Shown: positions 8,696 through 62,267 of the stretch, piece after piece
How the letters are laid out: each line of letters starts with the position of its first letter
Numbering within the stretch: position 1 is the stretch's first letter
Assembly: GCA_026706485.1 (NCBI GenBank)
Contig: JAPOYR010000008.1
Coordinates: 42,558 to 106,557, forward strand
Direction of reading: 5' to 3'
DNA from: Chloroflexota bacterium
Lineage (GTDB): Bacteria > Chloroflexota > UBA11872
DNA length: 64,000 bases
Program-made: the position numbers and the translations under genes
The notes under the pieces: generated by a model
Database searches by the model: none
Told to the model about the DNA's origin: nothing
What the model saw: the letters and a program-made list of their open reading frames with translations, nothing else

Positions 8696-8747
8696 GCGCG
8701 GCGGTGTCGCGTGATCGTTAACGGCCACGTCGGGAGTGTAGCCATCC

Positions 8748-8899
8748 GTCATTCCGAGCGCAGCGAGGAATCTAAGGGGCCGGACAGACACTCAGCGCAT
8801 CCCGCGTTCTCCGGCATCGCCTAGGTGGCGATCCGGTCCCTCGCCCTTGATGGAAATCCTTGCGCCCCTTCCGTCATTCCCGCGAAGGCGGGAATCCAC
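8748..8899. repeat. Intergenic repeat cluster: family B (8748-8777) and family C (8873-8899)
   Basis: GTCATTCCGAGCGCAGCGAGGAATCTAAGG and GTCATTCCCGCGAAGGCGGGAATCCAC. Both recur many times in the window in both orientations. Confidence 0.9.
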
Positions 8900-9011: not shown

Positions 9012-9752
9012 ATGCGCGTGGCCGTTGTCACCGACATTCACGGGAATCTGGGCGCCTTCTTCGCCGTGCTGGCGGACCTCAAGACCCAGGCGCCCGATCA
9101 GGTGATCTTCGGCGGTGATGCGGCGCTTTTTGGCGCGCACGCGCTCGAGTGCTGGCAGCGGGTGCTGGAGCTCGGCTGGCCCCTGGTCCAGGGAAACACC
9201 GACCGCTACCTGGCAAACCCGCGCCCCGCCCTGGAGGCCATGCGCCGGACATCCCCAGCGGCGGCGGAGCACTTGGAGCGCAACCTCGCCTGGGCGCGGG
9301 CGCGGCTCGGCGAACGCCTGATTGAACGCATGGCCTCGATGCGCACCGTCATTCGCGTGCCGTCGTCCGCCGGCCCGATGCTTGTGGTTCACGCCTCACC
9401 CGGCAACGACGAGGCCGGCATCACTCCCGACACGTCGGACGAGCAGGTGGACGCCCAACTCGCCTCGGTGGACGCACGGGTGCTGGTCTGCGGCCACACC
9501 CACCGCGCCTTCGTGCGGCACGTGGGTCAGCTGCTCCTCGTCAACTGCGGCTCGGTGGGTCGCACCTACGACGGTCAACCGGGGCAAGCCACCTACGCCG
9601 TGCTGGACGACGGGTCGGGCCGCTGGTCCGCCACCATCCGGCGCGTGCCCTACGACGAGCGCGCGGCGCACCGCAACACTCGCGCCCGTGGCGTGCCGTT
9701 GTCCGAGCCCTTTCTGGATTCCCTGCTGACGGCGCGCGACCCCGCCGCCTAG
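9012..9752 (+). CDS. Metallophosphoesterase family protein (calcineurin-like)
   Basis: Motifs DIHGN, GGD, GNTD, VVHASPGND, CGHTH and NCGSVG appear in the canonical order. Confidence 0.85.
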   Translation: MRVAVVTDIHGNLGAFFAVLADLKTQAPDQVIFGGDAALFGAHALECWQRVLELGWPLVQGNTDRYLANPRPALEAMRRTSPAAAEHLERNLAWARARLGERLIERMASMRTVIRVPSSAGPMLVVHASPGNDEAGITPDTSDEQVDAQLASVDARVLVCGHTHRAFVRHVGQLLLVNCGSVGRTYDGQPGQATYAVLDDGSGRWSATIRRVPYDERAAHRNTRARGVPLSEPFLDSLLTARDPAA

Positions 9753-22230: not shown

Positions 22231-24264
22231 GTGGAACCCCCCGACGACCTCGCGCTGACTCCACCGGAGAAGCACATGTGGCAAGCCGTCATGGGCGGCC
22301 AGCTTTGCACTTTCGGCAACGACGATCCGCGTGAACTTCTCTTCGACGACGAATGGGGACCGGAGCGCACCGTCCGGGGATTCGTGCTGGCGGCACTCCT
22401 CGTACGACTTCCGCCATGCGGAGCACCAGCAGTTCCACAAGTTGTGATCCAGGGTGCCCAAGTGACCGGTATGGTCGATCTGGATCTTCCCGATGAAATC
22501 GTCGGTATCCACCTTGATCACGCTCAGACCATGACAGCCCTCCTATTTGAGTCCTGCCTTTTCGATACTGATCTCTATTTCAGTTTAGGACAATTACACA
22601 GTCTATCTATAAGTCGCTGCGTCTTGTCGTCAATAAATGCCGAGGGAGTCTGGATTAAGGGTCGCCTGCAAATCACTGAGTCATTGATAAAGGGAGTCGT
22701 CAACCTGATAGACGCTGAGGTCAGCAGATCGGTAGTTATTTCGGACCTCGCAGTAACTGGGGAAAACGGGGTAGCAATAAATGCCTATGGCCTCAAAGTA
22801 GGCGGCAGCGCATTTCTATGTGACCACTCGATCGCAATCGGAAAGGTCCATCTCATGAGTGCGTCGATCGGTGGCAATTTAGGCTGCAATCAGGCAACGA
22901 TCTATAATCTCGAAGGTCAGGCGCCCAACGCTGACGGCGCAAACATCCGGGGTAGCGTATTGCTGCAAGACGGCTTTCAAGCGACCGGCGAAATGCGATT
23001 CATCAGCGCACGAATCGGCGGCAAAATGATATGCGACGGAGCGAGCTTCAACGCACCCTATGCGGGCGATGCACTCGTAGCCGACACACTGAACGTCCAT
23101 GACGATGTATCGCTCGCTTCAGGATTTCAGGCCACTGGATCGGTGCGGCTGCGAAATGCGCATATCGGTGGAAATCTCATCTGCGAAGGAGGACGATTCG
23201 ATAATCCCGGACGCGTCTCACTCAGCATCGACGGATCCAAGATCAACGGCTCAGTCAACCTTTCTCTAGATGCCAAAGCTGGCTTCTATGCTGCTGGCGA
23301 GGTGCGGCTTCCAGGCGCATATATCGGCGGTGGACTTGTCTGCAAAGGTGGCCGAATCGAGAATGGCGGAGATCATGCCCTCCTCGCTGATGGTACCGAC
23401 ATCCGAGGCGGCGCGTTTCTACTAGACGGCTTTCACGCGGTGGGTGAGGTAAGGTTCGTCAGTGCTCACCTTGGTCGACATCTCGAAGTCATAGATGCAG
23501 TATTCTCTAGTAAGACTAATTCATCCCAAGTCTATGCCAGTGGTCTCATTCTGCAGAATGCTCGCATGGATATATTCTTTTTGCATGGTCCGAGTCTGCG
23601 AATCTTTGGGGAATTGGATCTGCGAGCTGCGCGAATCCGCGTGCTCAACGATGATCCCGAACGCCTATTCGCAAGCAGTACGACGCTAGGTCTCGATGGC
23701 TTTGTCTACGAGCAATTTGCTTTGGATTCGCCCCCAGACCTCAATACCCGCCTGCGGTGGCTTGAGATCCAACGACCGGGCTATCACCCTCAGCCATTCG
23801 ACCAGCTTGCGGCCGTCTTTCGGAGCAACGGTCAGGACCATGAAGCTACGCAAGTGTTGATCGCCAAGCGTCGAAAGCGTCGGGGAACGCTTCCCAATCG
23901 GTGGCACAAGAGCTGGGACAGATTCTTGGATTGCTCGGTGCGTTACGGCTGGCAGCCGTGGCGGCCGCTGGTGCTCGGAGTCGGTGTATTTCTGGTTGCG
24001 CTTGCACTCGTCTTTGGTGCGGACCGGGCGGGCGTTGTCACCAGCCTCTCGGACACGCCATCACCGTACGACTGGTTCATCCACACGCTTGATGTGTTCC
24101 TTCCGGTTGTTGACCTGGGCGTCGAGTCGCGGTGGGTCATCAATGCTGAAAGCGGCGGCGGCGCCCTGGCAGTCGTGTGGTCTCTGTGGATTCTGAAGCT
24201 GGTGGGCTGGGGCACGATCACGCTTGCCCTGGCCGCCGTCACCCGAATCGTGCAGCGCGAGTAG
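22231..24264 (+). CDS. Beta-solenoid-like repeat protein with C-terminal transmembrane domain (unknown function) on a low-GC island
   Basis: 677-aa ORF in a stretch that is clearly AT-richer than its flanks. It has five or more ~49-aa repeats (DG.NIRGSV.L.DGF.A.GE.R...A.IGG.L.C.G..F.N) and then three hydrophobic helices (PLVLGVGVFLVALALVFGA; IHTLDVFLPVV; ALAVVWSLWILKLVGWGTITLALAAV). Start is GTG 22231 or ATG 22276. Confidence 0.8.
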   Translation: MEPPDDLALTPPEKHMWQAVMGGQLCTFGNDDPRELLFDDEWGPERTVRGFVLAALLVRLPPCGAPAVPQVVIQGAQVTGMVDLDLPDEIVGIHLDHAQTMTALLFESCLFDTDLYFSLGQLHSLSISRCVLSSINAEGVWIKGRLQITESLIKGVVNLIDAEVSRSVVISDLAVTGENGVAINAYGLKVGGSAFLCDHSIAIGKVHLMSASIGGNLGCNQATIYNLEGQAPNADGANIRGSVLLQDGFQATGEMRFISARIGGKMICDGASFNAPYAGDALVADTLNVHDDVSLASGFQATGSVRLRNAHIGGNLICEGGRFDNPGRVSLSIDGSKINGSVNLSLDAKAGFYAAGEVRLPGAYIGGGLVCKGGRIENGGDHALLADGTDIRGGAFLLDGFHAVGEVRFVSAHLGRHLEVIDAVFSSKTNSSQVYASGLILQNARMDIFFLHGPSLRIFGELDLRAARIRVLNDDPERLFASSTTLGLDGFVYEQFALDSPPDLNTRLRWLEIQRPGYHPQPFDQLAAVFRSNGQDHEATQVLIAKRRKRRGTLPNRWHKSWDRFLDCSVRYGWQPWRPLVLGVGVFLVALALVFGADRAGVVTSLSDTPSPYDWFIHTLDVFLPVVDLGVESRWVINAESGGGALAVVWSLWILKLVGWGTITLALAAVTRIVQRE

Positions 24265-24916: not shown

Positions 24917-25122
24917 GACCCTTGCAGAATCCAGCCGCGCTTGGGGATGACCGGGCGCCCTCTGTCCGCGCCCAGGTTCAATGAAGGGTGGATTCCCGCC
25001 TTCGCGGGAATGACGAAGGGTTACGCCAACGCCTTCGAGGGCGGAGGCCGGAAGCCAGTTCGGTCGAGTTTGGATGCACGCCGGATGCCTGGCGTCGGGC
25101 GGGTCTGAGGCCCGCCCCTACC
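24917..25122. repeat. Repeat cluster: composite D-C module (24917-25014) and family F (25094-25122)
   Basis: The same D-then-C arrangement recurs at 48188-48284 and 49776-49873. Confidence 0.9.
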
Positions 25123-39551: not shown

Positions 39552-40757
39552 TCAGGCTCGGGCGCCGGCCAGCCAGTCGGACATGCGCCTGACGCCCTCC
39601 CGCAGGTTCTCCCGCGAGTTGGCGTAGGACAGCCGCAGCGAGTCGCGCCCCACGTCGCCGAACGCGCTGCCGGCCAGCACGGCCACACCTGCCTCGTCCA
39701 GGAGCCCGGCGGCGATCTCGTCCGCGTCGCGATCGAAGCCCGAGAGCTGCGGAAATACGTAAAAGGCACCTGCTGGCCGCTGGCACGACACGCCGGGGAT
39801 GGCGTTGAGGCCGTCGACGACCTGGTCGCGGCGCGCCTTGAACTCGGCGACCATTTCCGCGGCAGCGTCCTGCGGTCCCTGCAGAGCCTCGATGCCGGCG
39901 ATCTGAATGAAGCTGGCCGTGCAGCTGGTGATGTTCGTCTGCAACTGCGAGAAGGCGGAGGCGAGATCGGCCGGCATGACGCCGTAGCCCATGCGCCAGC
40001 CGGTCATGGCATAGGTCTTGGAAAAACCGTCGAGGATGATCGTGCGGTCGCGCATGCCGGGTTCGGCGGCGATGGACGCGTGCTCGATCTCCCCGTACAT
40101 GATGCGGCAGTAGATCTCGTCGGAGAGCACGTAGGCGTCGTGATCGACCAGCAGCTCGCCAATGGCCCGGATGTCGGTGGGCTCCAGCACGCCGCCGGTC
40201 GGGTTTTGGGGCGAGTTGAGAATCAGCAGCTTGGTGCGCGGCGAGAGCTTGTCACGCAGCTCATCGAGGTCGAGCCGGAACTCGCGCTCCGGGCGCAATG
40301 CCAGCGGTACCGGGGTCGCGCCGACGAAGTCGACGACCGACTCGTAGATGGGGAAGCCGGGGTCGGGATAGAGCACTTCATCGCCGGGCCCGCACAGCGC
40401 CGTGATGGCGAAATACATGATCGGCTTGGCGCCCGGGGTGACGACGACCTCGTCGGGATCGACGACGATGCCCCGGGTCTCGCCGACGTGGGAGGCGATG
40501 GCGGCGCGAGTTTCGGGCAGCCCGGCCGAGGGGCCGTAGTGGGTGAATCCGTCATCGAGCGCGCGCTTGGCGGCTTCGATAATGTTGGCGGGGGTGTCGA
40601 AATCCGGCTCACCGATTTCGAGGTGAATGACGTCGCGGCCCTGGGCTTCGAGCTGTCGGGCGCGAGCCAGCACGGCGAATGCCGTCTCGGTGCCCAGCCG
40701 CCCCATGGCGGGCGCCAGGCCGGGATGCGTGAGCAACGCCACACTTGCCTCCTGCAC
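39552..40757 (-). CDS. Pyridoxal-phosphate-dependent aminotransferase, class I (aspartate aminotransferase-like)
   Basis: LEIGEPDFDTP, NSPQNPTG and FSKTYAMTGWRMGY (PLP lysine). Confidence 0.9.
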   Translation of the reverse strand: MQEASVALLTHPGLAPAMGRLGTETAFAVLARARQLEAQGRDVIHLEIGEPDFDTPANIIEAAKRALDDGFTHYGPSAGLPETRAAIASHVGETRGIVVDPDEVVVTPGAKPIMYFAITALCGPGDEVLYPDPGFPIYESVVDFVGATPVPLALRPEREFRLDLDELRDKLSPRTKLLILNSPQNPTGGVLEPTDIRAIGELLVDHDAYVLSDEIYCRIMYGEIEHASIAAEPGMRDRTIILDGFSKTYAMTGWRMGYGVMPADLASAFSQLQTNITSCTASFIQIAGIEALQGPQDAAAEMVAEFKARRDQVVDGLNAIPGVSCQRPAGAFYVFPQLSGFDRDADEIAAGLLDEAGVAVLAGSAFGDVGRDSLRLSYANSRENLREGVRRMSDWLAGARA

Positions 40758-40810
40758 AGGTGAACCAGACGGGCGGCCGACGAAGCCGCGACAACGAGGG
40801 CGATTCTAGC

Positions 40811-41812
40811 GTGCCGCATTCCGAGGCCACGGACTCCGGGTCGAGCGCGCCGGCGGCGCGGCGCATGCGGTCGGAGGACGTGGACTCGGTAGCGCACGTG
40901 CTCACGCAGGCGTTCGCGCCGCCGCCCGGCACGAGCCCTCCGGGACCGCGCACGCTGGTTTCCAACCACCTGGCCGATCGCTGGCACGCCCAGTGCGCCG
41001 GGTCGTGGGTGGTGGACGCGCCCGGATTTGGCCCCGTGGGCGCGGTCTTCGCCGTGGTCGAACCGGATGTCGGGTGGATCGGGGGACTCGGGGTTCATCC
41101 GGCATATCGCGGCGTGGGCGTGGGACGCGCGCTGACGACGGCGGCGCTTGGGTTCCTGGACGATGCCGGCTGCGCCATGGTTGGACTGGAAGCGTCGCCG
41201 AACGATGGCGTGGCGCTGGGCGCCTATGCGCGGCGCGGCCTGCGTCTGGTGGACGTCACGCTGCGCCTGCGGGCGAGCGCCGCGGCGCTGGCGACATCGG
41301 GCGTGGCTGTCGAACTCGAGGTTCGGTCGGTGCCCAAGGCAACGGCGTTGGATGGACCCGCGCTGGTCGAGCCGGGCGGTTCGCGAACCGCCCCTACTTC
41401 CTCGGATGAGAGGTTGGAATCCGATCCCTCACGCGCTGCTGAGGACCGCGTGGAGCTTCACGCGGCGGTACCGCTGTCGGGGGCCGCTTTCGCGGTTGTG
41501 GGGCCGGGTACATGCCTTGTGTGTGATCCCGAGGCCGTCCCCGCTGGCGAAGTCCTGGAGGCGCGGCTCGGGTCCTTGGGCCGCGACGGTCACTCGGTCG
41601 CGGCCGCGTGCCGTGGCCTCGGGCGCCTGGCCGTGACCAGGCAGTTGCGTTATGTCGAGTTGGATCTTGCGGTGGGGTCGGGAGCGGGGCTGGCCGAGGT
41701 GTCGCGCCTCGGATTTCAAACAGTCGCCAGCACGGTCCGGCTGGCCCGGCCGGCGGCGGCCTACCGCCGGGAATCGGACGATGGGCTGGAGATCGGGCGC
41801 TGGTCGCTTTAG
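40811..41812 (+). CDS. GNAT-family acetyltransferase with second domain; contains an embedded family-F repeat
   Basis: GLGVHPAYRGVGVGRALT is the GNAT motif A. The start is uncertain (GTG 40811 or ATG 40865). The family-F palindrome at 41374-41397 lies in-frame within the ORF. Confidence 0.6.
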   Translation: MPHSEATDSGSSAPAARRMRSEDVDSVAHVLTQAFAPPPGTSPPGPRTLVSNHLADRWHAQCAGSWVVDAPGFGPVGAVFAVVEPDVGWIGGLGVHPAYRGVGVGRALTTAALGFLDDAGCAMVGLEASPNDGVALGAYARRGLRLVDVTLRLRASAAALATSGVAVELEVRSVPKATALDGPALVEPGGSRTAPTSSDERLESDPSRAAEDRVELHAAVPLSGAAFAVVGPGTCLVCDPEAVPAGEVLEARLGSLGRDGHSVAAACRGLGRLAVTRQLRYVELDLAVGSGAGLAEVSRLGFQTVASTVRLARPAAAYRRESDDGLEIGRWSL

Positions 41813-41929: not shown

Positions 41930-42697
41930 CTAATCCAGCGCCTTGGTCGCCACCGCGATGAGGCGGTCGCCTTCGCCGTCGTAGGGATCGAGCGCCCAGG
42001 TGCCGTAGGTTTCGATCCGCTCGAATCCGGCGCAGCGCAGGGCCAACTCCAGCTCGAATCGATGTACGTAGCGCAGGGGCATGCGGCTCACGCGTCGCTG
42101 CACGCGGCCGTCGCCATCGAGCGTGTCGTAGATGTGCAGGGCGTCGATGCGTTGCGCGCCGGGGTCGACCTCCCACGACACGAAGTGCGTGACCGTCATT
42201 CCCTCGGCATCCGTGAAGCTGCCTTGGGTCCGCAGCACGCCGTCCCACGCCGCCAGCCGATCGAGCGTGGGATTGAAGACGTCGACGGCCAGGATGCCGC
42301 CCGGCTCGAGCACGTCGTTCACACTTTCCAGCGTGTCGAGCTGATCCTGGGTCGATTCCAAGTGCAGGAATGAGTCCAGCGCGCAGAACACCGCGCCAAA
42401 GCGGACGCGCGACGACAAGCGCCGCATGTCGCCCGGCTCGAGCTCGATCTCCAGGCCACGCTCCTCCGCTCGTCGGCGGGCGATGGCGAGGAGCGCCGGC
42501 GACGCGTCGATGCCGTGCACCGCGAATCCAGCCGCCGCCAAAGCCGTGCCCACGCGCGCCGTGCCGCACGCCAGGTCCAGAATCGGTCCGCCGGCGCGCT
42601 CCGCCAGGTGGGCGTACATCGGGAGATCGTCGTCCCAGTCGTCATGCTCGGCCGCATAGAGCTCGGCAATGGCCGCGTAGGGATCGGGTGTGCTCAC
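41930..42697 (-). CDS. Class I SAM-dependent methyltransferase
   Basis: ILDLACGTARVG (motif I), VHGIDASP, DMRRL. The in-frame GTG 42697 overlaps the upstream stop as GTGA. Confidence 0.8.
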   Translation of the reverse strand: MSTPDPYAAIAELYAAEHDDWDDDLPMYAHLAERAGGPILDLACGTARVGTALAAAGFAVHGIDASPALLAIARRRAEERGLEIELEPGDMRRLSSRVRFGAVFCALDSFLHLESTQDQLDTLESVNDVLEPGGILAVDVFNPTLDRLAAWDGVLRTQGSFTDAEGMTVTHFVSWEVDPGAQRIDALHIYDTLDGDGRVQRRVSRMPLRYVHRFELELALRCAGFERIETYGTWALDPYDGEGDRLIAVATKALD

Positions 42698-43407
42698 CGG
42701 CCAAAGGGCATGCGCCGGATGAGCAACTCGGCGCTGATGACGACCAGGACAATCAGAATCACCGCCGCCGGGGTTGCGACGCTGTTCACCGCCGCGGTCG
42801 CCACCGCCAGGGCGCCCACGGCGACCAGGACGGCCTGCCGGGTGACGGTCAACGCCGGCGGTCGCGGCGCTGAGGCGTCGTCTCCGGTTCGCAGCCAGGC
42901 GCCGATGGCCCAGGCAAAGAAAAAGGCTCCGAAGCCGGACAGGGCCACGAAGGCCAAGACGTTTTCGGTCCGGTCCGGCGAGGTGAAGACCAGCACGTAG
43001 CCCAGCAATGCGAGCGTGACCAGTCCACCCAGCCACATGAGGCCGGAAGTGACCCGGGTGAAATCGCGCGCTGCGCGTGGGCCAGTGCTGCGCGCCCGGT
43101 AGCCGCGTGGGGCCGGCGTTGCGAGGTCAAGTGTGGACTGCGGCGCGCCATCGTCCTTTGCGGCGGGTGGCTTGGCGGGGGACTCTTCAGCGGACTTGGC
43201 AGCCGACGCCCCAGCGCCGGGCTTCGGCTCGGGCTTGGGCTTGGGCTTGGCAGCCTTCGAGGCCGGCCGGTCCTTGTCATCCTCGGCAGCCGGCGGCGCC
43301 TCCCGCCGGATGACGAGCGAACCCTCAGCCAACGGCCTTGAGCCAGCGGGCGTCGGCCGCTTCGTCCGGCGACGGCGCCGACGCGCCGTCAACGATGTCC
43401 GCCACAC
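42694..43407 (-). CDS. Membrane protein with Lys/Pro/Ala-rich disordered N-terminus, unknown function
   Basis: About four C-terminal hydrophobic helices. The listed start would overlap the SbcC-like gene by 83 nt, so the true start is uncertain. Confidence 0.5.
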   Translation of the reverse strand: MWRTSLTARRRRRRTKRPTPAGSRPLAEGSLVIRREAPPAAEDDKDRPASKAAKPKPKPEPKPGAGASAAKSAEESPAKPPAAKDDGAPQSTLDLATPAPRGYRARSTGPRAARDFTRVTSGLMWLGGLVTLALLGYVLVFTSPDRTENVLAFVALSGFGAFFFAWAIGAWLRTGDDASAPRPPALTVTRQAVLVAVGALAVATAAVNSVATPAAVILIVLVVISAELLIRRMPFGR

Positions 43408-46330
43408 GGTCGAATCCTGCGCTGGTCAATCCGCCCGGCGCCGACGTGGCGATGACCTGCGGAAAGTACTGCTGGAAGTCGCCGTGGGGCAGCGCCTCGA
43501 GCACGGGCGCCACGGCTTCGACGTCAGCGGCGTCGAGCCAGAGGAACGCGGGCGCAAAGGGCGCGTCGTGGGGTCGGACGGCACTGAGAAAGGCCACGCC
43601 AACGGCAAGCTCGATCCGGTCGCGCAACGCGTCGCCGACCTCCCCGAGTGGCTTCCAGGCTTCGGGGGCTTCGTCCCAGACATGCACCGCCTGGTCCTGG
43701 GAGATCCGAACGTCCCAGTACATCCCGCCCGTCACCCGGCCAATGATCCGGCGCAGGGCGGCCTCCGTGGACTGCCGGACGCCATTTGCCAGCGCATCGA
43801 GCGCATGGGTCATCAGGCGCGAGGCGGCGGCCCGCACGCGACGCCGGTCGACGAGGTCGTCGAGCGCCGCGCGCGCCGCATCCAGATCGACGTCGTGACG
43901 CACGGCGCCGGTCCGGAGCTCGAGCTGTCGAATCTGCGCGTCGAACTCCCGTCGCGCGGCTCGGGCCCGCTGCATCCGTCGGCGAGCGCCGCCCGCGTCT
44001 TCCAATCGATCCTGGTCCAGGTCGGGGAATACGGCCCGAACTTCCGAAGCGGTCGGGGAGTCGTCGCCGTGCGCGCCCGTCGCCCGCACGGCGCCGGCCA
44101 GCTCCGTCGTCGCCCGCGACACACCGCCCTGCGCGACCCGCGCCGTCTCGGACGCTTCGGTCAAGCCCGAGGCTGCCCGCAATTCGCCCACCGCAGCCAC
44201 GACGTCGACCAGGGCAGCCAGTCCGTCGAGGCGGTCGATGGCTGCGTCCGGTGGTTGGCCCTGCGGCAATCCGGCGTCGGTGGCCACCAGCGCGTCGATG
44301 GCCTGGGCGATTCCGGGCAATGCGTTCTCGGCCGCGTGGAGCTTCCACGCCGCGCGCTGCCGGCCCGCCTCGAGGTCGGCTCCGCGGTCCAGGCGCTCTT
44401 GCATGGCGTTCAGCTCGCGCCGCTGGGCGTCGCGGGCGTTGACCAGCGCCGGGTGGTCGTCCGGCAGATCGAGGGACCGGGCCAGCTCCCCCGCGTGGCC
44501 GCGGGCGCGCCCGCTGGCCTCGATCTGGCTGCGGAGCTCGGCCTCCGCGGCCGCCGCGCGCTCTTCCACGCCCGAGCGTTCCAGCGCGTCGACACGGGCG
44601 CGCAACCGGTGCACCTCGCGCTCGGCGTGGGCCAACTCTCGCTGGGTGCGGGTGCACTCGGACTCGAGGTCGTCGGTCGAGACCGAGCTGTCACCGTCGG
44701 CAATGCGGCGCAATCGCGCGGTGGCGCTGTCACGCAGGATGCGCGCGCGCTCCGCCGATAGGGGGATCTCGAGGCCGAGGCGCTCCAGTTCGCGCTCGAT
44801 TCCGGCGCGCTGCTTGCGGCTGACCGCCAGGCGGGCGGCGTGTTGCTCGCTGTCGCGTTGGTCGTGATCAAGCTCGGCTAGTTGGTCCAGAAGCTCCGCC
44901 TCGTGGGCGAGATCGGCCCGCTGGCTCCACAGCGACCAGGCGCCCGCGGCCGCGCCGGCGACGACCACCACCATGCCCAGCACGGCCAGCGGCCCCGTGC
45001 CGGAGAAGCCGATGGTCGCCAGGACGATGCCGAAAGCGACGCCGACGGCCGCCAGCATCAGGCGGTTTCGGCGGCGCTGAGCTTCGATGGTCAGCGACCG
45101 TAGGTCTTGCCTGATGCGAGTGGTCTCGCGCGTCAGGTCCGAGGGGTCGACCTCGTCGCCCGCGTGATCGGGCTCGGCAAGGAGGATGTCGCCGAGCCGG
45201 CTCCACAGGCGGTGCGCGGCGGGGAGGTGCTCGTCTTCGTGGGCGCGTTGGCGCAGGGTCCGGGCCCGCTCGGCGCCGGCCTGGGCCTTGGCCTGCACCA
45301 CCTCGGCCTCGACCAGGTTGGAGCGGGCCTGTCGGAGTTCATGGGCGGTCCGGTGGTGATGGTCGCGCTTCGTCCGGGCGCGGTCGGCGGCTTCCGACGC
45401 CGCGGCGCCCGCGGTGGCGGCGTCACAGGCCTGATCGAGAGCCGCCAGTCGCTCGGCGCCGATCCGGGCGCGCTGCGCCAGGGACGCGAGATCGCCCAGC
45501 CGGGCATCCAATCGCCCGATGTGCTCCCGCGCGCGGGCGGCTTCCGCGGCGCTGCGCGCGTGATCCGCCCAGAGCGAGGCAAGCTCGCGGTACCGGGCAG
45601 CGCGGTCGCGCTCGTCAAGGAATTGCCCGCGTAGCACGCGGAATCTGCGCTCGGAAGCGTCGGCCTCCGCCGCGCGCTCCGATGCCGCGGTGAGCGCCTG
45701 CAAGGCCTGGCGCACACGCCAGCGCTGCAGCGCACGATCCAGCCGGTCGATCTCGTCCTCGTTGGCCGACGCCCGGGCCACCGCCTGCGCCAGCTCGACG
45801 CGCGCCCGCGCCACGGCCTCTTCCTCGTGGTGCGCCGGGCTTTCGGCGAACTCGACTTCCATTTCCTGGATGCGCCGCTCGCCGAGCAGACGGCGCAGCA
45901 GCGCTCGAATCTCGGCGGCCGGCGGCAATTCGGAACGGGGCTCCGGCCGCACCAGCAATTCCAGCGTCGCTCGATCGAGTCCCAGCATCCTGTCGAGCGC
46001 CGCGCGTACCTGAGCCTCGCCGTGGATCGGCGCTGAGCGCGGTCCGCGGTTGATGAACAGCTCCGCCTCGTCCCCGCCGGTGGCCCGCAGGGTGCGCCGC
46101 ACGGTGAGCGGTCGTCCACCGGCGGCGAGCGCGCACTCCACCATCGCCCCGTCGGACCGGGCGCGCATGCCGTCGGGCGGGCCGTAGAGGCAGGTCAGCA
46201 GCGCCGCCTTCAACGCCTGCGCCTGGTCAGGCGGACCCGTGATCAGGTGATGGCCCTGCGGCTGAAACTCCAGGTCCACCCGGTGCATGGCGCCAAGCTC
46301 GCGGACCGTCAGCCGCTCCAGGAGAATCAT
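43325..46330 (-). CDS. SbcC/Rad50-like SMC-fold protein with long coiled coil and degenerate ATPase motifs
   Basis: 1001 aa. The N-terminus LLERLTVRELGAMHRVDLEFQPQGHHLITGPPDQAQALKAALLTCLYG aligns to the Rad50/SbcC head, but Walker A GP.G.GKS/T reads GPPDQAQA. The middle is rich in heptad-like AEL/R segments. The C-terminus reads AFLWLDAAD (Walker B without the catalytic E) and has no LSGG or H-loop. Confidence 0.75.
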   Translation of the reverse strand: MILLERLTVRELGAMHRVDLEFQPQGHHLITGPPDQAQALKAALLTCLYGPPDGMRARSDGAMVECALAAGGRPLTVRRTLRATGGDEAELFINRGPRSAPIHGEAQVRAALDRMLGLDRATLELLVRPEPRSELPPAAEIRALLRRLLGERRIQEMEVEFAESPAHHEEEAVARARVELAQAVARASANEDEIDRLDRALQRWRVRQALQALTAASERAAEADASERRFRVLRGQFLDERDRAARYRELASLWADHARSAAEAARAREHIGRLDARLGDLASLAQRARIGAERLAALDQACDAATAGAAASEAADRARTKRDHHHRTAHELRQARSNLVEAEVVQAKAQAGAERARTLRQRAHEDEHLPAAHRLWSRLGDILLAEPDHAGDEVDPSDLTRETTRIRQDLRSLTIEAQRRRNRLMLAAVGVAFGIVLATIGFSGTGPLAVLGMVVVVAGAAAGAWSLWSQRADLAHEAELLDQLAELDHDQRDSEQHAARLAVSRKQRAGIERELERLGLEIPLSAERARILRDSATARLRRIADGDSSVSTDDLESECTRTQRELAHAEREVHRLRARVDALERSGVEERAAAAEAELRSQIEASGRARGHAGELARSLDLPDDHPALVNARDAQRRELNAMQERLDRGADLEAGRQRAAWKLHAAENALPGIAQAIDALVATDAGLPQGQPPDAAIDRLDGLAALVDVVAAVGELRAASGLTEASETARVAQGGVSRATTELAGAVRATGAHGDDSPTASEVRAVFPDLDQDRLEDAGGARRRMQRARAARREFDAQIRQLELRTGAVRHDVDLDAARAALDDLVDRRRVRAAASRLMTHALDALANGVRQSTEAALRRIIGRVTGGMYWDVRISQDQAVHVWDEAPEAWKPLGEVGDALRDRIELAVGVAFLSAVRPHDAPFAPAFLWLDAADVEAVAPVLEALPHGDFQQYFPQVIATSAPGGLTSAGFDRVADIVDGASAPSPDEAADARWLKAVG

Positions 46331-47445
46331 GCGACGCGGCTTTCGGCGCGTCGCCGAAAGCCATCGACGACCAACCGGCGCGCCCGAGCGACGGTGTCCG
46401 CGTCGTCCGCCGGCGCGGCGCCGGCGGTCAGGTGCTCGGCCGCGCGACGCACCTCCACCACGAACGAACGCGTCGGGCGTGCGTCGGCCGGTCCGGTTGT
46501 AATGTCGAGTTGTGACAGGTCAAGGTGTACCAGCGTGCCGTCGGCGGATGCCCGGCGGCTCAGATCGGCCACCCGGCAGCGATGCCACAGCTCGCGCGAG
46601 AACGCTCCCACGAATTCAAGCGTCACCAGCGGGGCGTCTCCAATGAGCGGCGTCACTCGCTCACGAATGACTCCGGCAGGGTCGCGATCGGCCAGCTCCC
46701 CCGCGGTGAAGGTGACCACGACGGGCGAGACACCCGCAAGCTCGCGAAACTCCGCGGCAATCACGCCGCCCTGATCCAGATCCACCAGGGCGAATCCCGC
46801 CTCCGGGCGACGCTCGGCCACCGCCGGGGCGGACCACCCGGGGCAGATCAGGAAAACATTTTCGAGTTGACGCTGGCCGGGATCCGGCCGGTTGCCGAGG
46901 ACGATGACGTCGGCGGCCATGGCCTCTGGGCGCTGCAGCGCGTCCGAGTCGCTGGTCAGCGCGATGCGGAGGGTTGGATGATGAGGCGCAGGATCGGCAT
47001 GGCCAAACGCCGAAGGCGCGCCAACGTCGAGCGCGATTCCGGCAACGTCGACGGTCCGGCTCCGGATGCCGCCGTCGGGCCGCACGCCGGCCAAAAGCCC
47101 AAGCTCCTCGAGGAAGGCAATGCCGGTGCTGCCGGTCGCGGGATTCTCGGCATCGTCGAGCGCGATGGCCACGATTCCGGCGTCGCGCGCGCGACCGAGA
47201 CACTGGGAAGCAAAGCGAATATCGTCGAGTCCCGGCTCCGACTGCGCGAAGAGGCCGCCGGCGATGAGCATGAGGTCAGCGTCGTCGGCGATTGCTTGCT
47301 CGACGACAGCGGCGAAACTGCGCCTCGAGTGCGCCTGGAAGAGCGCAAGCTGCTCGGCGTTGAGAGATGGAGGCACGGCCCCGATGAGGTTGCCCGCGGT
47401 CAGCACGGCACGTATTGATTCGGCCGATCCCCGCAGGAACCGCAT
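46327..47445 (-). CDS. SbcD/Mre11-like protein with all metal-binding motifs substituted
   Basis: Architecture is MRFL....(motif I)...DADLMLIAGGLF(motif II)...GIVAIALDDAEN(motif III)...VIVLGNRPD(motif V). The canonical residues D-x-H, GD, GNHD and GH-x-H are all replaced. ATGA overlap with the SbcC-like start. Confidence 0.65.
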   Translation of the reverse strand: MRFLRGSAESIRAVLTAGNLIGAVPPSLNAEQLALFQAHSRRSFAAVVEQAIADDADLMLIAGGLFAQSEPGLDDIRFASQCLGRARDAGIVAIALDDAENPATGSTGIAFLEELGLLAGVRPDGGIRSRTVDVAGIALDVGAPSAFGHADPAPHHPTLRIALTSDSDALQRPEAMAADVIVLGNRPDPGQRQLENVFLICPGWSAPAVAERRPEAGFALVDLDQGGVIAAEFRELAGVSPVVVTFTAGELADRDPAGVIRERVTPLIGDAPLVTLEFVGAFSRELWHRCRVADLSRRASADGTLVHLDLSQLDITTGPADARPTRSFVVEVRRAAEHLTAGAAPADDADTVARARRLVVDGFRRRAESRVA

Positions 47446-47451
47446 ACGCAG

Positions 47452-48057
47452 CTACGCCATCCCCTGCCTCCCAGGTGCGGCGACGAAATGCGCCTGACTT
47501 GACAGAATATCACCGCCCGCTGGCGACGACCAGATCGAGGGCTCCTCGGCCCCTCGGCTGGGCGCCAGTTTCAAGCTGATGCCACATCCGTCCTGGACGT
47601 AGGTGCGGCGTCCGTCCCGGATCATGAGCGTGTGACCGCGCCAGCGGCGGCGGAAGTGCCGCAACACCAGGTCGACGACCGGAAACTGGAAGCGCCACTC
47701 GGCGACGAGCTGGCGCGGACCCGGTCCGCGGGTGAAGCGCAAGTCACGCCGCGCGGCGTGCACTTCGCGGTAGACCTGATGCCCCCAGCTCAAGGCCAGC
47801 TGGGCTTCGCGCGAACCGCGACCCAGCACGAACGAGGCGCCGTGCTCCAGCACCTGGCCGGCCACGGCGCGCAGCACCCGATCGCGATCAGGCGCGGGAT
47901 GGCGCAGGGCGTAGCCGTAGAGACGTGCGAGCCGCGCCAGGCGCCGGCGGTCGCGGCGCACAGCCGCCAGTCGCGACCGCACCACGTCCGGTCCGCCGCC
48001 GCGCTCGTCGGCAACCTGCCGCAGCAGGGCAAAGAACGTGTCGGGCACGCGGCTCAT
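47452..48057 (-). CDS. DUF4130-like protein (TIGR03915-type putative DNA-metabolism protein), tentative
   Basis: The C-terminal segment VYREVHAARRDLRFTRG...LVAEWRFQFPVVDLVLRHFRRRWRGHTLMIRDGRRTYV follows the DUF4130 pattern as I recall it (R.EVHR..G.LRF ... P.......L..HF..R.....W.I.D.RR). ATG 48057 (MSRVPDTFF) taken as the start. Confidence 0.5.
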   Translation of the reverse strand: MSRVPDTFFALLRQVADERGGGPDVVRSRLAAVRRDRRRLARLARLYGYALRHPAPDRDRVLRAVAGQVLEHGASFVLGRGSREAQLALSWGHQVYREVHAARRDLRFTRGPGPRQLVAEWRFQFPVVDLVLRHFRRRWRGHTLMIRDGRRTYVQDGCGISLKLAPSRGAEEPSIWSSPAGGDILSSQAHFVAAPGRQGMA

Positions 48058-48157
48058 GCTGGCCTCCAATCGAATTCGGCGCCCACGCTTGGGGACGTGT
48101 CCAGCACCGACTTCATAACTGCGCACGTGGTCGACGAACCAGAGTCATGCCGGCGGT

Positions 48158-48284
48158 CCCCCTCACCCCAACCCTTTGCCACGGAAGACGCTTGCAGAAT
48201 CCAGCCGGAGTTGGGGACAACCGGGCGCATCCGTTCCGCCGTCGGGTTCAGTGAGGGGTGGATTCCCGCCTTCGCGGGAATGAC
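48158..48284. repeat. Repeat cluster: G fragment and composite D-C module
   Basis: CCCCTCACCCCAACCC; then CTTGCAGAATCCAGCCGGAGTTGGGGACAACCGGGCGC ... GTGGATTCCCGCCTTCGCGGGAATGAC. Confidence 0.9.
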
Positions 48285-48307
48285 GGAAGGGTTAGACGAC
48301 GATCGCA

Positions 48308-49549
48308 TCATCCGAGCACCGCGTCGCGCCAGGCGTATCGACTCGAGCTCATGCGCGCCCGGCTGGCGAGCAGCGACGCGGGCGCCAGGACGGCGTCGCC
48401 GAATCGCTGTCGGACCTGGTCCTGCGCCTCGTCCAGCCGCCGCCGCTCACGCGTCTCCGCCGGCCGCAGCGGCAACTGGCAGTAGTCAAAGCTCTCGAGC
48501 GCGGTGGCGTGAACTCCCACCAGGCGGTAGACATCATCGGCGCGCGCCACGCGCAGAAACAGCTCGCGAGCCAACGCGAAGATGGCCGCGCCGATATCCA
48601 CGGCCGCCCCGGCGGTCGTCTGTCGGGTGATGGTGCGGAAGTCGGCGTAGCGCACCTTGACGCTGACGGTGCGCGCGCGGAGGTGCTTGGCACGCAGCCG
48701 CTGACCCACGTGCTCGGCAAGCTGCTGCAGGTAGTCCACCACAACCGTCCTGTCATCGACATCGCGGTCGAAGGTGACCTCGTTGCCCACCGAGCGGCGA
48801 CCGCGCGCGGGAGTCACGGCCCGCGGGTCGATGCCACGCGACCGCACGGCGGCTTGGGCGGCGGTCCCGCCAAAGCCGGCGTGGACCCGCTCCGGGTCGA
48901 TGCAAGCGAGGTCACCGATGGTGGTCACGCCATGCCGTCCGAGCTTGGCCGCCGTCTTGGGGCCAATGCCCCAGACCATGCGGACGGGCAGCGGGTCGAG
49001 GAAGGCCGACTCCGCGCCGGGAAGGATGACGCGGCAGCCGTCGGGCTTGGCAACCTGAGAAGCGATCTTGGCCACCGACTTCGTGGCCGCCACGCCGACG
49101 GATATGGGGAGGTCTTCGCGTTGACGCACGGTCGCTCGCAGGTGATTGGCAATTTCGGCCGGCGTCCCATAGCGGCGCTCGCAGCCGGTGACGTCGAGGA
49201 AGGCCTCGTCCAGCGACAGCGGCTCGACGAGCGGCGTGTAGGTGCGAAACAAGTCCATCACCCGGCTCGACACGTCGGCGTAGAGGTCCATGCGACCGGG
49301 AACGAACTCGGCCTGCGGGCAGAGGCGGGCGGCCTGGCGCGAGGGCATGGCGGAGCGCACGCCGAACGCGCGCGCTTCATAGGAAGCCGCCGTGACCACG
49401 CCGCGTCCGTCGCGCGAGCCGCCGACGACTACCGGCTTGCCGCGCAGCTCCGGCCGCTCGCGCTGCTCGACGGCCGCGTAGAAGGCGTCCATGTCGGCGT
49501 GCATGACCACCCGGTGACCATTCCAGGCGTCTGAGCCGAGATCCTGCAT
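48308..49549 (-). CDS. dinB: DNA polymerase IV (Y-family)
   Basis: MHADMDAFYAAVEQRERPELRGKPVVVGG and SLDEAFLDV. The alternative start ATG 49504 is equally plausible. Confidence 0.9.
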   Translation of the reverse strand: MQDLGSDAWNGHRVVMHADMDAFYAAVEQRERPELRGKPVVVGGSRDGRGVVTAASYEARAFGVRSAMPSRQAARLCPQAEFVPGRMDLYADVSSRVMDLFRTYTPLVEPLSLDEAFLDVTGCERRYGTPAEIANHLRATVRQREDLPISVGVAATKSVAKIASQVAKPDGCRVILPGAESAFLDPLPVRMVWGIGPKTAAKLGRHGVTTIGDLACIDPERVHAGFGGTAAQAAVRSRGIDPRAVTPARGRRSVGNEVTFDRDVDDRTVVVDYLQQLAEHVGQRLRAKHLRARTVSVKVRYADFRTITRQTTAGAAVDIGAAIFALARELFLRVARADDVYRLVGVHATALESFDYCQLPLRPAETRERRRLDEAQDQVRQRFGDAVLAPASLLASRARMSSSRYAWRDAVLG

Positions 49550-49579: not shown

Positions 49580-49617
49580 ATAATACCAGACAACAACCGA
49601 ACGAACAAATAGCGAAC
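49580..49617 (-). promoter_or_regulatory. Candidate dinB promoter with overlapping direct-repeat SOS box (GTTC-N7-GTTC)
   Basis: The minus strand reads CTGTTCGCTATTTGTTCGTTCGGTTGTTGTCTGGTATTATTCC. GTTCGCTATTTGTTC lies at 49617-49603. TTGTTC (-35), a 17-nt spacer and TATTAT (-10, 49585-49580) follow. Confidence 0.4.
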
Positions 49618-49686: not shown

Positions 49687-50022
49687 CCCCTCACCCCGAC
49701 TCTCGCCCCGTGGGAGAGGGAGCGGATGCAGCCGGCTTGCGCGTGTGCCCGTCTCACCGACCCTCTCCCCGTTGGAGACCCGTGCAGATTCCAGCCCGGT
49801 TTGGGGATGAGCGGGCGCATCCTGTCCGTCCCCAGGTTCAATGAAGGGTGGATTCCCGCCTTCGCGGGAGTGACGATTGGTTTCGCAGAAGCGTCCTTAC
49901 CATTGGAAGGCATCGCACCGCCTCTGGAGCCTCACCTCTGTCATTTCGAGCGGAGCGAGAAATCTAATGGGCGCGGGAGGATTCACAGCGTGCTTAGATT
50001 CCTCGCTTGCGCTCGGAATGAC
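49687..50022. repeat. Repeat mosaic between dinB and lexA (G, D-C composite, B variant, inverted B)
   Basis: G at 49687-49722; D at 49776-49820; C at 49848-49873; B variant at 49939-49968; inverted B at 49993-50022. Confidence 0.9.
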
Positions 50023-50056
50023 AGACTGCGGGAATGCCGCGCGACGAACTCTCGGC

Positions 50057-50695
50057 CTAAAGGCTCCGCAGGATGGCGACGGCGTGGCCGCGGACGCGCA
50101 CGTCGCGGGCGTAGATGGGGTCGTAGTCGGCGTTGGCGGGCTGCAGGCGCACGCGCCCGTTCTCGCGGAAGAGGCGCTTGAGCGTGGCGGTGCCGTCGTC
50201 CAGCATGGCCACGGCGATCTGTCCGTCCCGCACGGCCTCGGTGGGCGCGACGATCACCAGGTCGCCGTCGCAGATGTGGTCGTCGATCATGCTGTCGCCG
50301 CGCACGCGCAGCGCATAGGTGTCGCTCGCGGGCGCGAGGCCGGAGGCCACCGGGACGGTGTCGATGCGCTCCTCGTAGGCGTCGATCGGCAGACCGGCGG
50401 CAATCTCGCCGATGATCGGCACGTGGACCACGCCGGCGTCGGCGCCGTTATCGAGGATCTCGATGCCGTGCGACTGGCCGGTGCGCCGGATGTAGCCCTT
50501 GCGCTCCAGGGCGTCCAGGTGCTGCTGCACGGTGGCCGGCGCCAGACCGACGATGCCGCCAACCTCGCGAACACTGGGCGTGTAGCCCTCGTCGCGCACG
50601 AAGCGCTCGATGGTGACCAGCACGCGATGCTGTCGTTGAGTGAGCGGGCCGCCCATGGGCGACATCCTCCGCGACGCGCGACGCGGCATGACCAA
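50057..50695 (-). CDS. lexA: LexA repressor (S24 peptidase)
   Basis: N-terminal winged helix (LTQRQHRVLVTIERFVRDEGYTPSVREV), the cleavage-site region, and catalytic VRGDSM ... TLKR. The start could be any of the ATGs between 50695 and 50656. Confidence 0.9.
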   Translation of the reverse strand: MVMPRRASRRMSPMGGPLTQRQHRVLVTIERFVRDEGYTPSVREVGGIVGLAPATVQQHLDALERKGYIRRTGQSHGIEILDNGADAGVVHVPIIGEIAAGLPIDAYEERIDTVPVASGLAPASDTYALRVRGDSMIDDHICDGDLVIVAPTEAVRDGQIAVAMLDDGTATLKRLFRENGRVRLQPANADYDPIYARDVRVRGHAVAILRSL

Positions 50696-50727: not shown

Positions 50728-50757
50728 AACCTACCAGACAGAATGCGAACGCGTCAA
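50728..50757 (-). promoter_or_regulatory. Candidate lexA promoter with SOS-box-like GTTC-N7-GTCT
   Basis: The minus strand reads TTGACGCGTTCGCATTCTGTCTGGTAGGTT. TTGACG (-35) and TAGGTT (-10) are separated by 18 nt. GTTCGCATTCTGTCT (50750-50736) shares GTTCGC..T.TGT with the dinB box. Confidence 0.35.
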
Positions 50758-53235: not shown

Positions 53236-53470
53236 GGTAGGGAGAGTCGCGAACCGCCCGAGGTCGACCTTCGCAATTCGGGTAGGGGCGGGTCTTAGAC
53301 CCGCCCGACGCCAAGCATCCGGCGCGCGCCCCGAGTTCAGTCAAGGTGGATTCCCGCCTTCGCGGGAATGACAGATGCAACGTAGCCCGCGACCGAGCGG
53401 TGGCCCGCGCTGCGTGCGGCGTGGGACCCTTGGAAGACATCCCATGCTGCGCGCAGCATGGGCCACCGGA
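53236..53470. repeat. Repeat mosaic (F fragment, F, C, A and inverted A)
   Basis: F at 53282-53308; C at 53346-53372; A at 53399-53427; inverted A at 53441-53470. Confidence 0.9.
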
Positions 53471-61675: not shown

Positions 61676-62267
61676 CCCTCACCCTAGCCCTCTCCCTTCC
61701 AGGGCGAGGGGACCGGATCGGCCTGTGGCGTGGCGGCGAAACGCCCGGGCCGCCGTGGTTTTTCCTTGCCCCTTAGATTCCTCGCTGCGCTCGGAATGAC
61801 AGCAGGGGGACGAGCGACCATGGGGATTCCCACGCTGCACGCAGCGCGGGCCACCGGACGGCCCCTCACCCTCGCCCTCTCCCCGTGGGAGAGGGGACCG
61901 GACCGGGCCGCGGGCGTGGCGACCATCCACCCGAGCCGCGGTGCCGCCTTCCGGCCCCTTAGATTCCTCGCTGCGCTCGGAATGACAGCAGGGGGACGAG
62001 CGACCATGGGGATTCCCACGCTGCACGCAGCGCGGGCCACCGGACGGCCCCTCATCCTCGCCCTCTCCCCGTGGGAGAGGGGACCGGACCGGCGCTTCCA
62101 GGTTGGATGGCGGGTGGATTCCCGCCTCCGCGGGAATTACGAAGGGCCAGCGGACATCGGTCATACGAACCCTGGATTCCGGCCTTCGCCGGAATGACGG
62201 CGGGGGGTGCGCAGAAGTGTCGCGAACCGTCCCCAAGGGCGTGGTTCGACAGGCTCACCACGAACGG
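61676..62267. repeat. Repeat mosaic including a 186-bp-period tandem duplication of a composite B-A-G module
   Basis: G at 61676-61716. The 138-bp units at 61769-61906 and 61955-62092 differ at one position. C variants lie at 62114-62140 and 62172-62198, and E at 62241-62267. Confidence 0.9.

Follow-up and report, generated by a model that had tools for sequence, protein, structure and literature searches.

A cluster of five genes in a Chloroflexota bacterium raises the question of what a machine for DNA processing can still do when its catalytic residues are lost and its genes are kept by selection. The cluster is located in a 64,000-nucleotide stretch of DNA, called the window below (assembly GCA_026706485.1, contig JAPOYR010000008.1, positions 42,558 to 106,557 of the forward strand), which has a G+C content of approximately 70%. 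The list of open reading frames (ORFs) of the window contains five consecutive minus-strand ORFs, named A to E in the order of transcription, at positions 47452–48126, 46327–47445, 43325–46330, 42694–43407, and 41930–43036, respectively. An earlier sequence-only reading had described them as a tightly coupled operon for a DUF4130-like protein, SbcD-like and SbcC-like proteins, a polytopic membrane protein, and a small-molecule-type methyltransferase, and it had recognised no described system in this combination. All five assignments were upheld by the searches reported here, and the families are co-localised in the same order in approximately twenty species representatives. The resemblance to ATPase–nuclease modules that had also been proposed did not survive, because every nuclease and ATPase motif is gone from B and C. 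The anatomy of the cluster and the non-catalytic status of the B–C pair are highly probable. The whole account, according to which the cluster encodes a membrane-anchored non-enzymatic derivative of Mre11–Rad50 that acts with three accessory proteins as a scaffold, tether, or sensor, has in our estimate a probability of about 0.5.

Predicted Mre11 fold of B lacks the phosphoesterase active site

Protein B is annotated by NCBI as a hypothetical protein and has no match in Pfam. The profile of the B family matches Mre11 of P. furiosus (E = 3e-6). The AlphaFold2 (AF2) model of B has a predicted local distance difference test score (pLDDT) of 78, and its fifty best Foldseek matches are all Mre11 or SbcD, the closest with E = 2e-12. 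B is predicted from these matches to have the Mre11 fold, composed of the nuclease and capping domains. The model ends with two helices of low pLDDT (residues 328–342 and 349–371) at the place where Mre11 binds Rad50, and the residues S327, R333, R334, A355, and R356 of this C-terminal region are invariant.

The phosphoesterase motifs I–V (DxH, GD, GNHD, H, and GHxH) of Mre11 and SbcD bind two Mn2+ ions. Alignment with active relatives showed that motif I, TADNHLG in active proteins, is TAGNLIG in the window (DxH to GxL), AGDLFD of motif II is AGGLFA (GD to GG), GGNHD of motif III is ALDDAE (GNHD to LDDA), and GHxH of motif V is GNRP, within the sequence LGNRP. The conserved histidine of motif IV is gone, the aligned residues being LTSDSD, and there are deletions between motifs III and V. 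All seven metal ligands of Mre11 and the catalytic histidine have become glycine, leucine, alanine, aspartate, threonine, asparagine, arginine, or proline. The five motifs are missing from all members of the B family (25 of 25).

Predicted Rad50 head of C lacks ATPase motifs and carries a transmembrane hairpin

The profile of C matches the N-lobe of Rad50 from T. maritima (E = 7e-5). The AF2 model of C (pLDDT 77) contains a beta-rich N-lobe, a helical excursion of approximately 700 residues, and a C-lobe. Foldseek searches with C returned Rad50, SMC5/6, MukB, and JetC, and the matches limited to the head were all Rad50. C is predicted to consist of a Rad50-type head and a long antiparallel coiled coil. 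The Walker A sequence GxNEAGKS has given way to sequences such as GPPDQA-Q, in which one residue is deleted and the P-loop lysine is gone; in the alignment of the C profile with T. maritima Rad50, GPNGAGKS is opposite v-p-p-d-q-a-q of C. Comparison with active relatives showed, in addition, that the signature SGG is lost, the DE of Walker B is reduced to a lone D, and the H-loop histidine is missing. The loss of the ATPase motifs is common to every family member examined.

The apex of the coiled coil of C is formed by two strongly hydrophobic helices (residues 424–466, Kyte–Doolittle peaks of 2.4 and 2.0) joined by the sequence GTGP. The residues G434, G441, P447, and G452 of this region are invariant, and the model places helices 396–442 and 446–517 there. 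C does not contain a CxxC zinc hook, and no cysteine is conserved near the apex. Thus, the apex is a two-helix transmembrane hairpin in place of the zinc hook, which the sequence-only reading had missed.

A pair that still works as an SbcCD-like nuclease and ATPase through non-canonical residues, as a part of SOS repair, would be in agreement with the intact folds of B and C, the purifying selection on their genes, and the presence of lexA and dinB next to them in most lineages. We consider such activity very unlikely, because in B the seven metal ligands and the catalytic histidine are replaced and there are deletions between motifs III and V, and because C has a deletion of the P-loop lysine and no Walker B glutamate or H-loop histidine. 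Among the invariant residues of B and C, no alternative conserved cluster of histidines and aspartates is evident.

Relatives of B and C form a graded series from active to dead

An exhaustive HMMER search with the B profile produced 238 matches, which together with their genomic contexts form a graded series. The fully active pairs (P0063, P0065, P0068, P0073, and L030) have intact motifs in both proteins. The pair of L030, which includes the nearest active sequence relatives of B–C, is part of a NurA–HerA–Mre11–Rad50 operon, where the C homologue contains a transmembrane hairpin, and D and E are absent. In the half-decayed pairs (P0062, P0064, and P0069, with L028 and L033 as the loci of P0064 and P0069), B keeps DxH, GD, and GHxH and has GNHD changed to GDAD, and C keeps the P-loop and has SGG changed to SAG, DE changed to DD, and the H-loop histidine lost. 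The fully dead pairs are those of the window family, in which all motifs of B and C are lost, and the hairpin, D, and E are present. The parallel decay of B and C is as expected if the two proteins still form one complex.

Two of the half-decayed loci differ in their composition. L028 contains the genes B', C', D', and E', with a transmembrane hairpin in C; its right-hand flank is syntenic with that of the window, but lexA, dinB, and A are absent. L033 contains a pair without the hairpin in C and without D and E. The presence of D and E beside the hairpin-bearing C of L028, and their absence beside the hairpin-less C of L033, were counted in favour of a membrane scaffold. Rad50 homologues with an intact Walker A motif, a central transmembrane hairpin, and no CxxC are encoded at positions 9155–11848 of L030, 2305–4200 of L031, and 5430–7466 of L034. 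Since the hairpin is also found in homologues with intact Walker A, membrane-anchored hook-less Rad50 seems to be a wider and little-studied class.

Comparison of the B–C pair with SbcEF and SbcCD

In B. subtilis, the SbcC-like protein SbcE has a central domain that is hydrophobic and insoluble and contains a conserved proline, and it lacks a CxxC motif; together with its SbcD-like partner SbcF, it is involved in double-strand break repair and transformation (PMC2811018). The layout of SbcE/SbcF (YhaN/YhaO), according to its published description, is shared by the window pair, with the hairpin of C and its invariant P447, the lack of CxxC, and the SbcD-like partner (PMC2811018). C has no match to the Pfam family AAA_27 (YhaN); the C relative from L028 matches AAA_27 weakly (25.9 bits) and in the P-loop region only. 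In SbcE the Walker motifs can still be recognised, and SbcF is predicted to be a nuclease, whereas B and C are without any catalytic motif. The gene order differs as well, the cluster has no yhaM-like exonuclease, and it has the additional conserved genes D, for a protein with four transmembrane helices, E, for a methyltransferase, and A, for a DUF4130 protein.

Mre11–Rad50 and SbcCD share with the B–C pair both folds, the adjacent overlapping genes with Mre11 first, and possibly C-terminal helices for the binding of Rad50, which the model of B shows at low pLDDT. In contrast, B–C lacks the phosphoesterase motifs, Walker A and B, the signature, the H-loop, and the zinc hook, and differs in its membrane anchoring and accessory genes. 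The Rad50 of the NurA–HerA–Mre11–Rad50 operon in L030 resembles C in having a hairpin. The cluster belongs to the Mre11–Rad50/SbcEF kind by fold and ancestry, and it fails the defining catalytic features of this kind. No paper in the literature library searched describes a catalytically dead or D/E-associated relative of Mre11–Rad50, and nothing relevant came from searches on Rv1277/Rv1278 or on Rad50 anchored in the membrane.

D is a four-helix membrane protein and E is predicted to be an amine N-methyltransferase

Alignment and hydropathy show four transmembrane helices in D. The N-terminal tail that precedes them is variable: it is rich in lysine, proline, and alanine in the close clade and in arginine in the distant clade, and L006, L028, and L029 have a short tail or none at all. 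Between the tail and the helices lies the conserved motif LDL-x2-P-x-PRGY. D has no match in Pfam or NCBIfam and no significant match in the PDB. A metagenome scan with D found three loci only, all from the same family, and thus no independent contexts for D.

Protein E matches Methyltransf_25 (E = 2e-17) and other methyltransferase families, and contains a Rossmann-type domain for the binding of S-adenosylmethionine (SAM). Its nearest solved relatives are 9sot, CcbJ, YunM, CypM, and dTDP-aminosugar N,N-dimethyltransferases, with E-values down to 5e-28. CypM is the N-terminal methyltransferase of cypemycin, and the best NCBIfam match of E is a daptide methyltransferase, far under the cut-off. 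By these similarities, E is predicted to be a class I SAM-dependent methyltransferase of the amine N-methyltransferase type and not of the DNA-methyltransferase type.

The combination of an SMC fold, a nuclease fold, and a methyltransferase is reminiscent of anti-phage or anti-plasmid defence by an SMC-ATPase, a nuclease, and a methyltransferase, as in Wadjet, Lamassu, or MADS. The presence of JetC among the Foldseek matches of C and the PADLOC match of E to the methyltransferase domain of mad2 (E = 5e-16) are consistent with defence. However, PADLOC gave no match below E = 0.5 for A, B, and C, and only a chance-level match for D (E = 0.04), in line with the initial impression that the cluster is not a described system. 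The ATPase and nuclease motifs are missing, and E is not of the DNA-methyltransferase type. Furthermore, the cluster is in strongly conserved chromosomal synteny in approximately twenty species and not in a variable island, and its composition is host-typical (G+C of 0.70–0.74, high G+C at third codon positions). A defence function can hardly be reconciled with these properties.

B, C, D, and E form a coupled core with a putative promoter

The junctions between the genes noted previously are present in the sequence: A and B are separated by 6 nt (47446–47451, TAG-ctgcgt-ATG), B and C share an ATGA overlap of 4 nt (46327–46330), which is kept in all loci of the family, and D and E share a GTGA overlap (42694–42697). 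The overlap or abutment of C and D, previously given as 43325–43407, is an overlap of 8 nt. The D start codon GTG 43407 was dropped in favour of TTG 43332, since relatives have a conserved start codon at the 8-nt C/D overlap. The start codon is exactly 7 nt ahead of the last base of the C stop codon in nine of nine close-clade loci checked. The overlap is 1 or 4 nt in the distant clade. The gene order and the B/C, C/D, and D/E overlaps are the same in approximately twenty species representatives, including those in which the identity of C is as low as 33%, and B, C, D, and E appear to be translationally coupled across this deep divergence.

An extended −10-like element with the consensus TGnTAnnAT is positioned approximately 60 nt upstream of the start of B. 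The leader downstream of it contains an invariant block rich in purines, GGGRGGCARGG(G)AT, which is positioned 17–30 nt upstream of the B start codon. The element and the leader have the same distance from B in every lineage with a dead B–C pair, and they are kept also where the region is intergenic and in L006. The −10-like element was seen at the same position in L001, L003, L006, L028, L029, and L037–L040; the leader is more divergent in L028. Because of this conservation, we read B–C–D–E as a coupled core with its own promoter. The purine block is too far upstream for a normal Shine–Dalgarno site, and in some lineages it is followed by a mini-ORF of two codons (ATG GCG TAG). Analysis of the B leader by RNAalifold gave −4.6 kcal/mol and two covarying pairs, a weak result from which no structure is claimed.

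Gene A is loosely linked to the dead B–C pair

Protein A matches PF13566 (DUF4130) with 30.9–31.2 bits, compared to the gathering score of 27, and so do nine of the twelve members of its family, which NCBI names "DUF4130 domain-containing protein". The match to TIGR03915 reaches 30 bits against a cut-off of 112, and a profile search of the PDB produced nothing significant for A. DUF4130 has been proposed to bind nucleic acid, without catalytic activity of its own, as the partner of a radical-SAM enzyme. The family has been tied to SOS neighbourhoods (PMC3765255). TIGR03915 proteins of cassettes with a radical-SAM enzyme and uracil-DNA glycosylase (UDG) share the PF13566 match with A and differ from it in size (243 residues compared to a core of approximately 165 in A) and in partners. 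As the sequence-only reading had noted, such partners are missing here: no radical-SAM or UDG Pfam match is present within approximately ±10 kb in L001, L003, L006, L029, and L038, and A itself has no UDG domain. The constant neighbour of A is the dead Mre11–Rad50-like pair.

The start of A is most likely ATG 48057, which gives a protein of 201 residues, and not GTG 48126, because GGAGG is located 6 nt upstream of this ATG and the alignments of homologues begin at the same codon. The conserved core of A comprises residues 1–165. The last approximately 35 residues are not conserved as protein, and their codons overlap the promoter and leader region of B, across which the reading frame of A is extended in the close clade. 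L006, from which dinB is missing, retains a relic of A at positions 8733–8870, where the last approximately 46 codons remain with 41% identity. This relic is exactly the stretch that overlaps the B promoter and leader, which suggests that the DNA was kept for regulation and not for coding.

Gene A precedes every dead B–C pair with a readable upstream flank except for the relic in L006, and every A-family member with a visible context is located upstream of a dead B–C pair. Two contigs from freshwater lakes, L039 and L040, contain A–B–C without a dinB or lexA match upstream of A (approximately 1.6 kb of sequence in L039), and A therefore accompanies the dead pair whether or not dinB is present. 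The alternative that A belongs with dinB and not with B–E is weakened by these two contigs. A is linked to the cluster, but loosely, and the claim of a tightly coupled five-gene operon stands for B–C–D–E and falls for A, whose distance from B varies from 6 to approximately 500 nt and which L028 lacks and L006 retains only as a relic.

The variable spacing, an antisense ORF between A and B in L038, the loss of A from two lineages, and the promoter-like element of B would also be explained if the arrangement were mere inherited synteny, with A and/or E unrelated to B–C–D; the flanking genes are just as syntenic. We regard this explanation as unlikely, because the C/D and D/E start–stop overlaps are kept down to 33% identity, and no nucleotide separates D from E even in L028. 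Moreover, A is upstream of the dead B–C pair in two different left-flank contexts, and every member of its family that was found lies upstream of B in the contexts examined.

The cluster was found in Chloroflexota and is under purifying selection

Among 5.8 billion proteins searched with C, only fourteen were real relatives, and none of these has a match in Pfam. The scan of one genome per GTDB species identified twenty loci, all in metagenome-assembled genomes (MAGs) of Chloroflexota. The isolate labels COS, RHO, and Langseth resemble, judging from the names alone, labels that we take to be those of marine-sponge MAGs. All sufficiently long loci have the order lexA–(TPR)–dinB–A–B–C–D–E, after which come a GNAT gene in convergent orientation, the gene of an aminotransferase, CdAMP_rec, and tmk.

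Proteins B, C, and D of the distant clade are 27–42% identical to those of the window, compared to 62–77% for LexA, DinB, and the aminotransferase, and B, C, and D evolve much faster than their neighbours. The ratio of nonsynonymous to synonymous substitution rates (dN/dS) is 0.12–0.18 for A, 0.20–0.28 for B, 0.22–0.29 for C, 0.17–0.33 for B to E overall, and approximately 0.1 for lexA and dinB, indicating that all five genes are under purifying selection. Decay of B and C as pseudogenes was rejected because of the dN/dS of 0.2–0.3 and the intact ORFs of approximately 1000 codons in all lineages.

Candidate LexA operators are located at lexA and dinB

The sequence GTTCG-N5-TGTYY occurs three times in the window, compared to the expected 0.35, and solely at lexA and dinB. 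The candidate operator at lexA is found at a similar distance in fifteen of sixteen loci scanned. The tandem candidates at dinB have the same offsets in the close clade, and one copy is present in four of the six distant-clade loci scanned. The motif resembles the direct-repeat LexA box GTTC-N7-GTTC of Alphaproteobacteria and not the Gram-positive palindrome GAAC-N4-GTTC, and in this Chloroflexota lineage it may serve as the LexA operator. The Gram-positive box was rejected as a candidate: it is absent from the lexA, dinB, and A spacers, and its counts are below chance. Read-through from the putatively LexA-controlled dinB promoter into B–E is possible.

Proposed function of the cluster

Based on the predicted structures of B and C, the graded series of their relatives, and the conservation of the cluster, a mechanism can be proposed. 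B and C would assemble into a B2C2 complex in the same way as Mre11 and Rad50. The hairpin of C would hold the complex in the cytoplasmic membrane, probably packed against the four transmembrane helices of D, and the inert head would reach tens of nanometres into the cytoplasm, where it may serve as a passive scaffold, tether, or sensor, without cutting or hydrolysis. A may supply the binding of nucleic acid, and E may methylate an amine of a partner, which could be a protein amine, a lipid head group, or a small molecule. The genes B–E are presumably transcribed from their own promoter, to which read-through from the dinB promoter may add. The cluster kept by selection is probably a non-catalytic membrane scaffold. 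DNA or the nucleoid is its likely target because of the Mre11–Rad50 ancestry and the DUF4130 partner A; a role of the complex as a DNA tether or DNA sensor is tentative, and we would sooner bet against it than for it.

The main rival is that B–C–D–E left DNA metabolism and became a scaffold of the membrane or envelope, for example in membrane domains or division, with E acting on a lipid or peptide and the adjacency to lexA and dinB being accidental. The chemistry of DNA processing is all lost, two of the five proteins are integral membrane proteins, and E resembles amine N-methyltransferases of small molecules and peptides, not DNA methyltransferases. In addition, L028 and L039 have the cluster at a place without lexA and dinB, and no LexA box is present at A or B. 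A departure from DNA metabolism is nevertheless doubtful, because A belongs to a family tied to nucleic acids and SOS and tracks the dead B–C pairs, SbcEF, the hook-less relative with a hydrophobic centre, acts on DNA, and the head and capping domains are still well conserved.

Several observations weigh against the proposed scaffold, tether, or sensor. The models are based on shallow multiple sequence alignments (25 and 10 sequences), and the predicted template modelling score of the C model is 0.38, as expected of an elongated protein. The whole neighbourhood from lexA to tmk is equally syntenic in these genomes, so that gene order alone is weak evidence of functional linkage. No copy of GTTCG-N5-TGTYY is present upstream of A or B in the window, and the cluster also occurs without lexA and dinB nearby; therefore, the link of the cluster to DNA damage is one of adjacency only. 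Of the DNA-damage neighbourhood that had been suggested, the adjoining dinB and lexA genes remain. Finally, Rad50 heads normally require ATP to dimerise and clamp DNA, so that a role on DNA may have been lost together with catalysis.

Positions of genes and other features in the window

The coordinates of the cluster and its upstream neighbours are listed in Table 1. The spacer between dinB and A had been described as repeats, and most of it is indeed filled by a copy of a dispersed repeat. The core of the repeat, TCCCGCGAAGGCGGGAATCCA, occurs seven times in the window compared to zero expected, and the hairpin-core copies are located at 8878–8898, 24989–25009, 48259–48279, 49849–49869, 53347–53367, 62115–62135, and 62173–62193. 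The core belongs to an intergenic element of approximately 100–140 nt resembling miniature inverted-repeat transposable elements or repetitive extragenic palindromes, and a 100-nt pair of copies is formed by 48186–48285 and 49776–49875. The element yields spurious ORFs that read "...PAKAGIHP..." or "...PAFAGMT...". Positions 49937–50025 contain a second, small palindromic repeat.

Gene E is convergent with the gene of a 355-residue GNAT-type acetyltransferase (40745–41812, plus strand), the start of which overlaps the start of the divergent aminotransferase ORF (39552–40757, minus strand) by 13 nt (40745–40757). This arrangement is kept in all loci, including L028. The plus-strand gene at 22231–24264 has a G+C content of 0.56, compared to approximately 0.70, and is possibly horizontally acquired. 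Its 677-residue protein contains many degenerate glycine-rich repeats with a beta-helix-like look, and C-terminal hydrophobic segments. No Rfam family was found in the window at gathering thresholds, and a consensus scan for terminators gave none above the expectation from shuffled sequences.

Table 1 Features of the A–E cluster and its upstream flank (positions in the window)
Feature	Position	Strand	Basis
Gene A, short DUF4130-like protein, 201 aa	47452..48057 (ORF reaches GTG 48126)	-	PF13566 match, homologue alignment
Putative own promoter of B–C–D–E: extended -10-like TGATATTCT (47504-47512) and leader of ~58 nt with GGGAGGCAGGGGAT	47446..47512	-	conservation
Gene B, predicted Mre11/SbcD-fold protein, 372 aa, phosphoesterase motifs all lost	46327..47445	-	profile search, AF2/Foldseek, motif alignment
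Gene C, predicted Rad50/SbcC-fold coiled-coil protein, 1001 aa, without ATPase motifs or CxxC	43325..46330	-	profile search, AF2/Foldseek
Transmembrane hairpin of C, residues ~424-466, GTGP turn, coiled-coil apex	44933..45061	-	Kyte–Doolittle, alignment, model
Gene D, membrane protein with four transmembrane helices, 212 aa, revised start TTG 43332	42694..43332	-	alignment, hydropathy
Gene E, predicted class I SAM-dependent methyltransferase, 255 aa, amine N-methyltransferase type	41930..42697	-	Methyltransf_25, PDB relatives
Dispersed intergenic repeat copy filling most of the dinB–A spacer	48149..48285	.	core TCCCGCGAAGGCGGGAATCCA at 48259-48279
dinB (Y-family polymerase), upstream neighbour	48308..49549	-	IMS, IMS_HHH, and IMS_C in orthologues; 62-95% identity across loci
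Two tandem candidate LexA operators, dinB promoter, abutting -10	49588..49617	-	GTTCG-N5-TGTYY
lexA	50057..50695	-	LexA_DNA_bind and Peptidase_S24 in orthologues; 69-100% identity across loci
Candidate LexA operator between -35 and -10 of the lexA promoter	50736..50750	-	GTTCG-N5-TGTYY

Implications

To our knowledge, Mre11–Rad50 is universally described as an ATP-driven nuclease machine. We suggest tentatively, at a likelihood well short of even, that the cluster is the first recognised "pseudo-enzyme" Mre11–Rad50, in which a membrane-anchored paralogue in a lineage of Chloroflexota may have become an ATP- and nuclease-independent tether between DNA and membrane or a damage sensor, through a co-ordinated loss of both active sites, the recruitment of A, D, and E, and placement downstream of lexA–dinB. 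The practical impact is limited for now because the carriers are uncultured Chloroflexota known from MAGs only.

The cluster provides a new context for DUF4130 that is independent of radical-SAM enzymes. It also draws attention to hook-less relatives of Rad50 with a transmembrane hairpin, which are found in active operons as well; SbcEF is, as far as we know, the sole studied hook-less member, and it is poorly understood. The decay series from fully active to fully dead pairs is a natural experiment on the conversion of a machine into a pseudo-enzyme. If a conserved and selected Mre11–Rad50 without catalytic residues is indeed present in these bacteria, the architecture of the complex, made of the coiled coil, the head, and the Mre11 dimer, would be useful apart from its chemistry.

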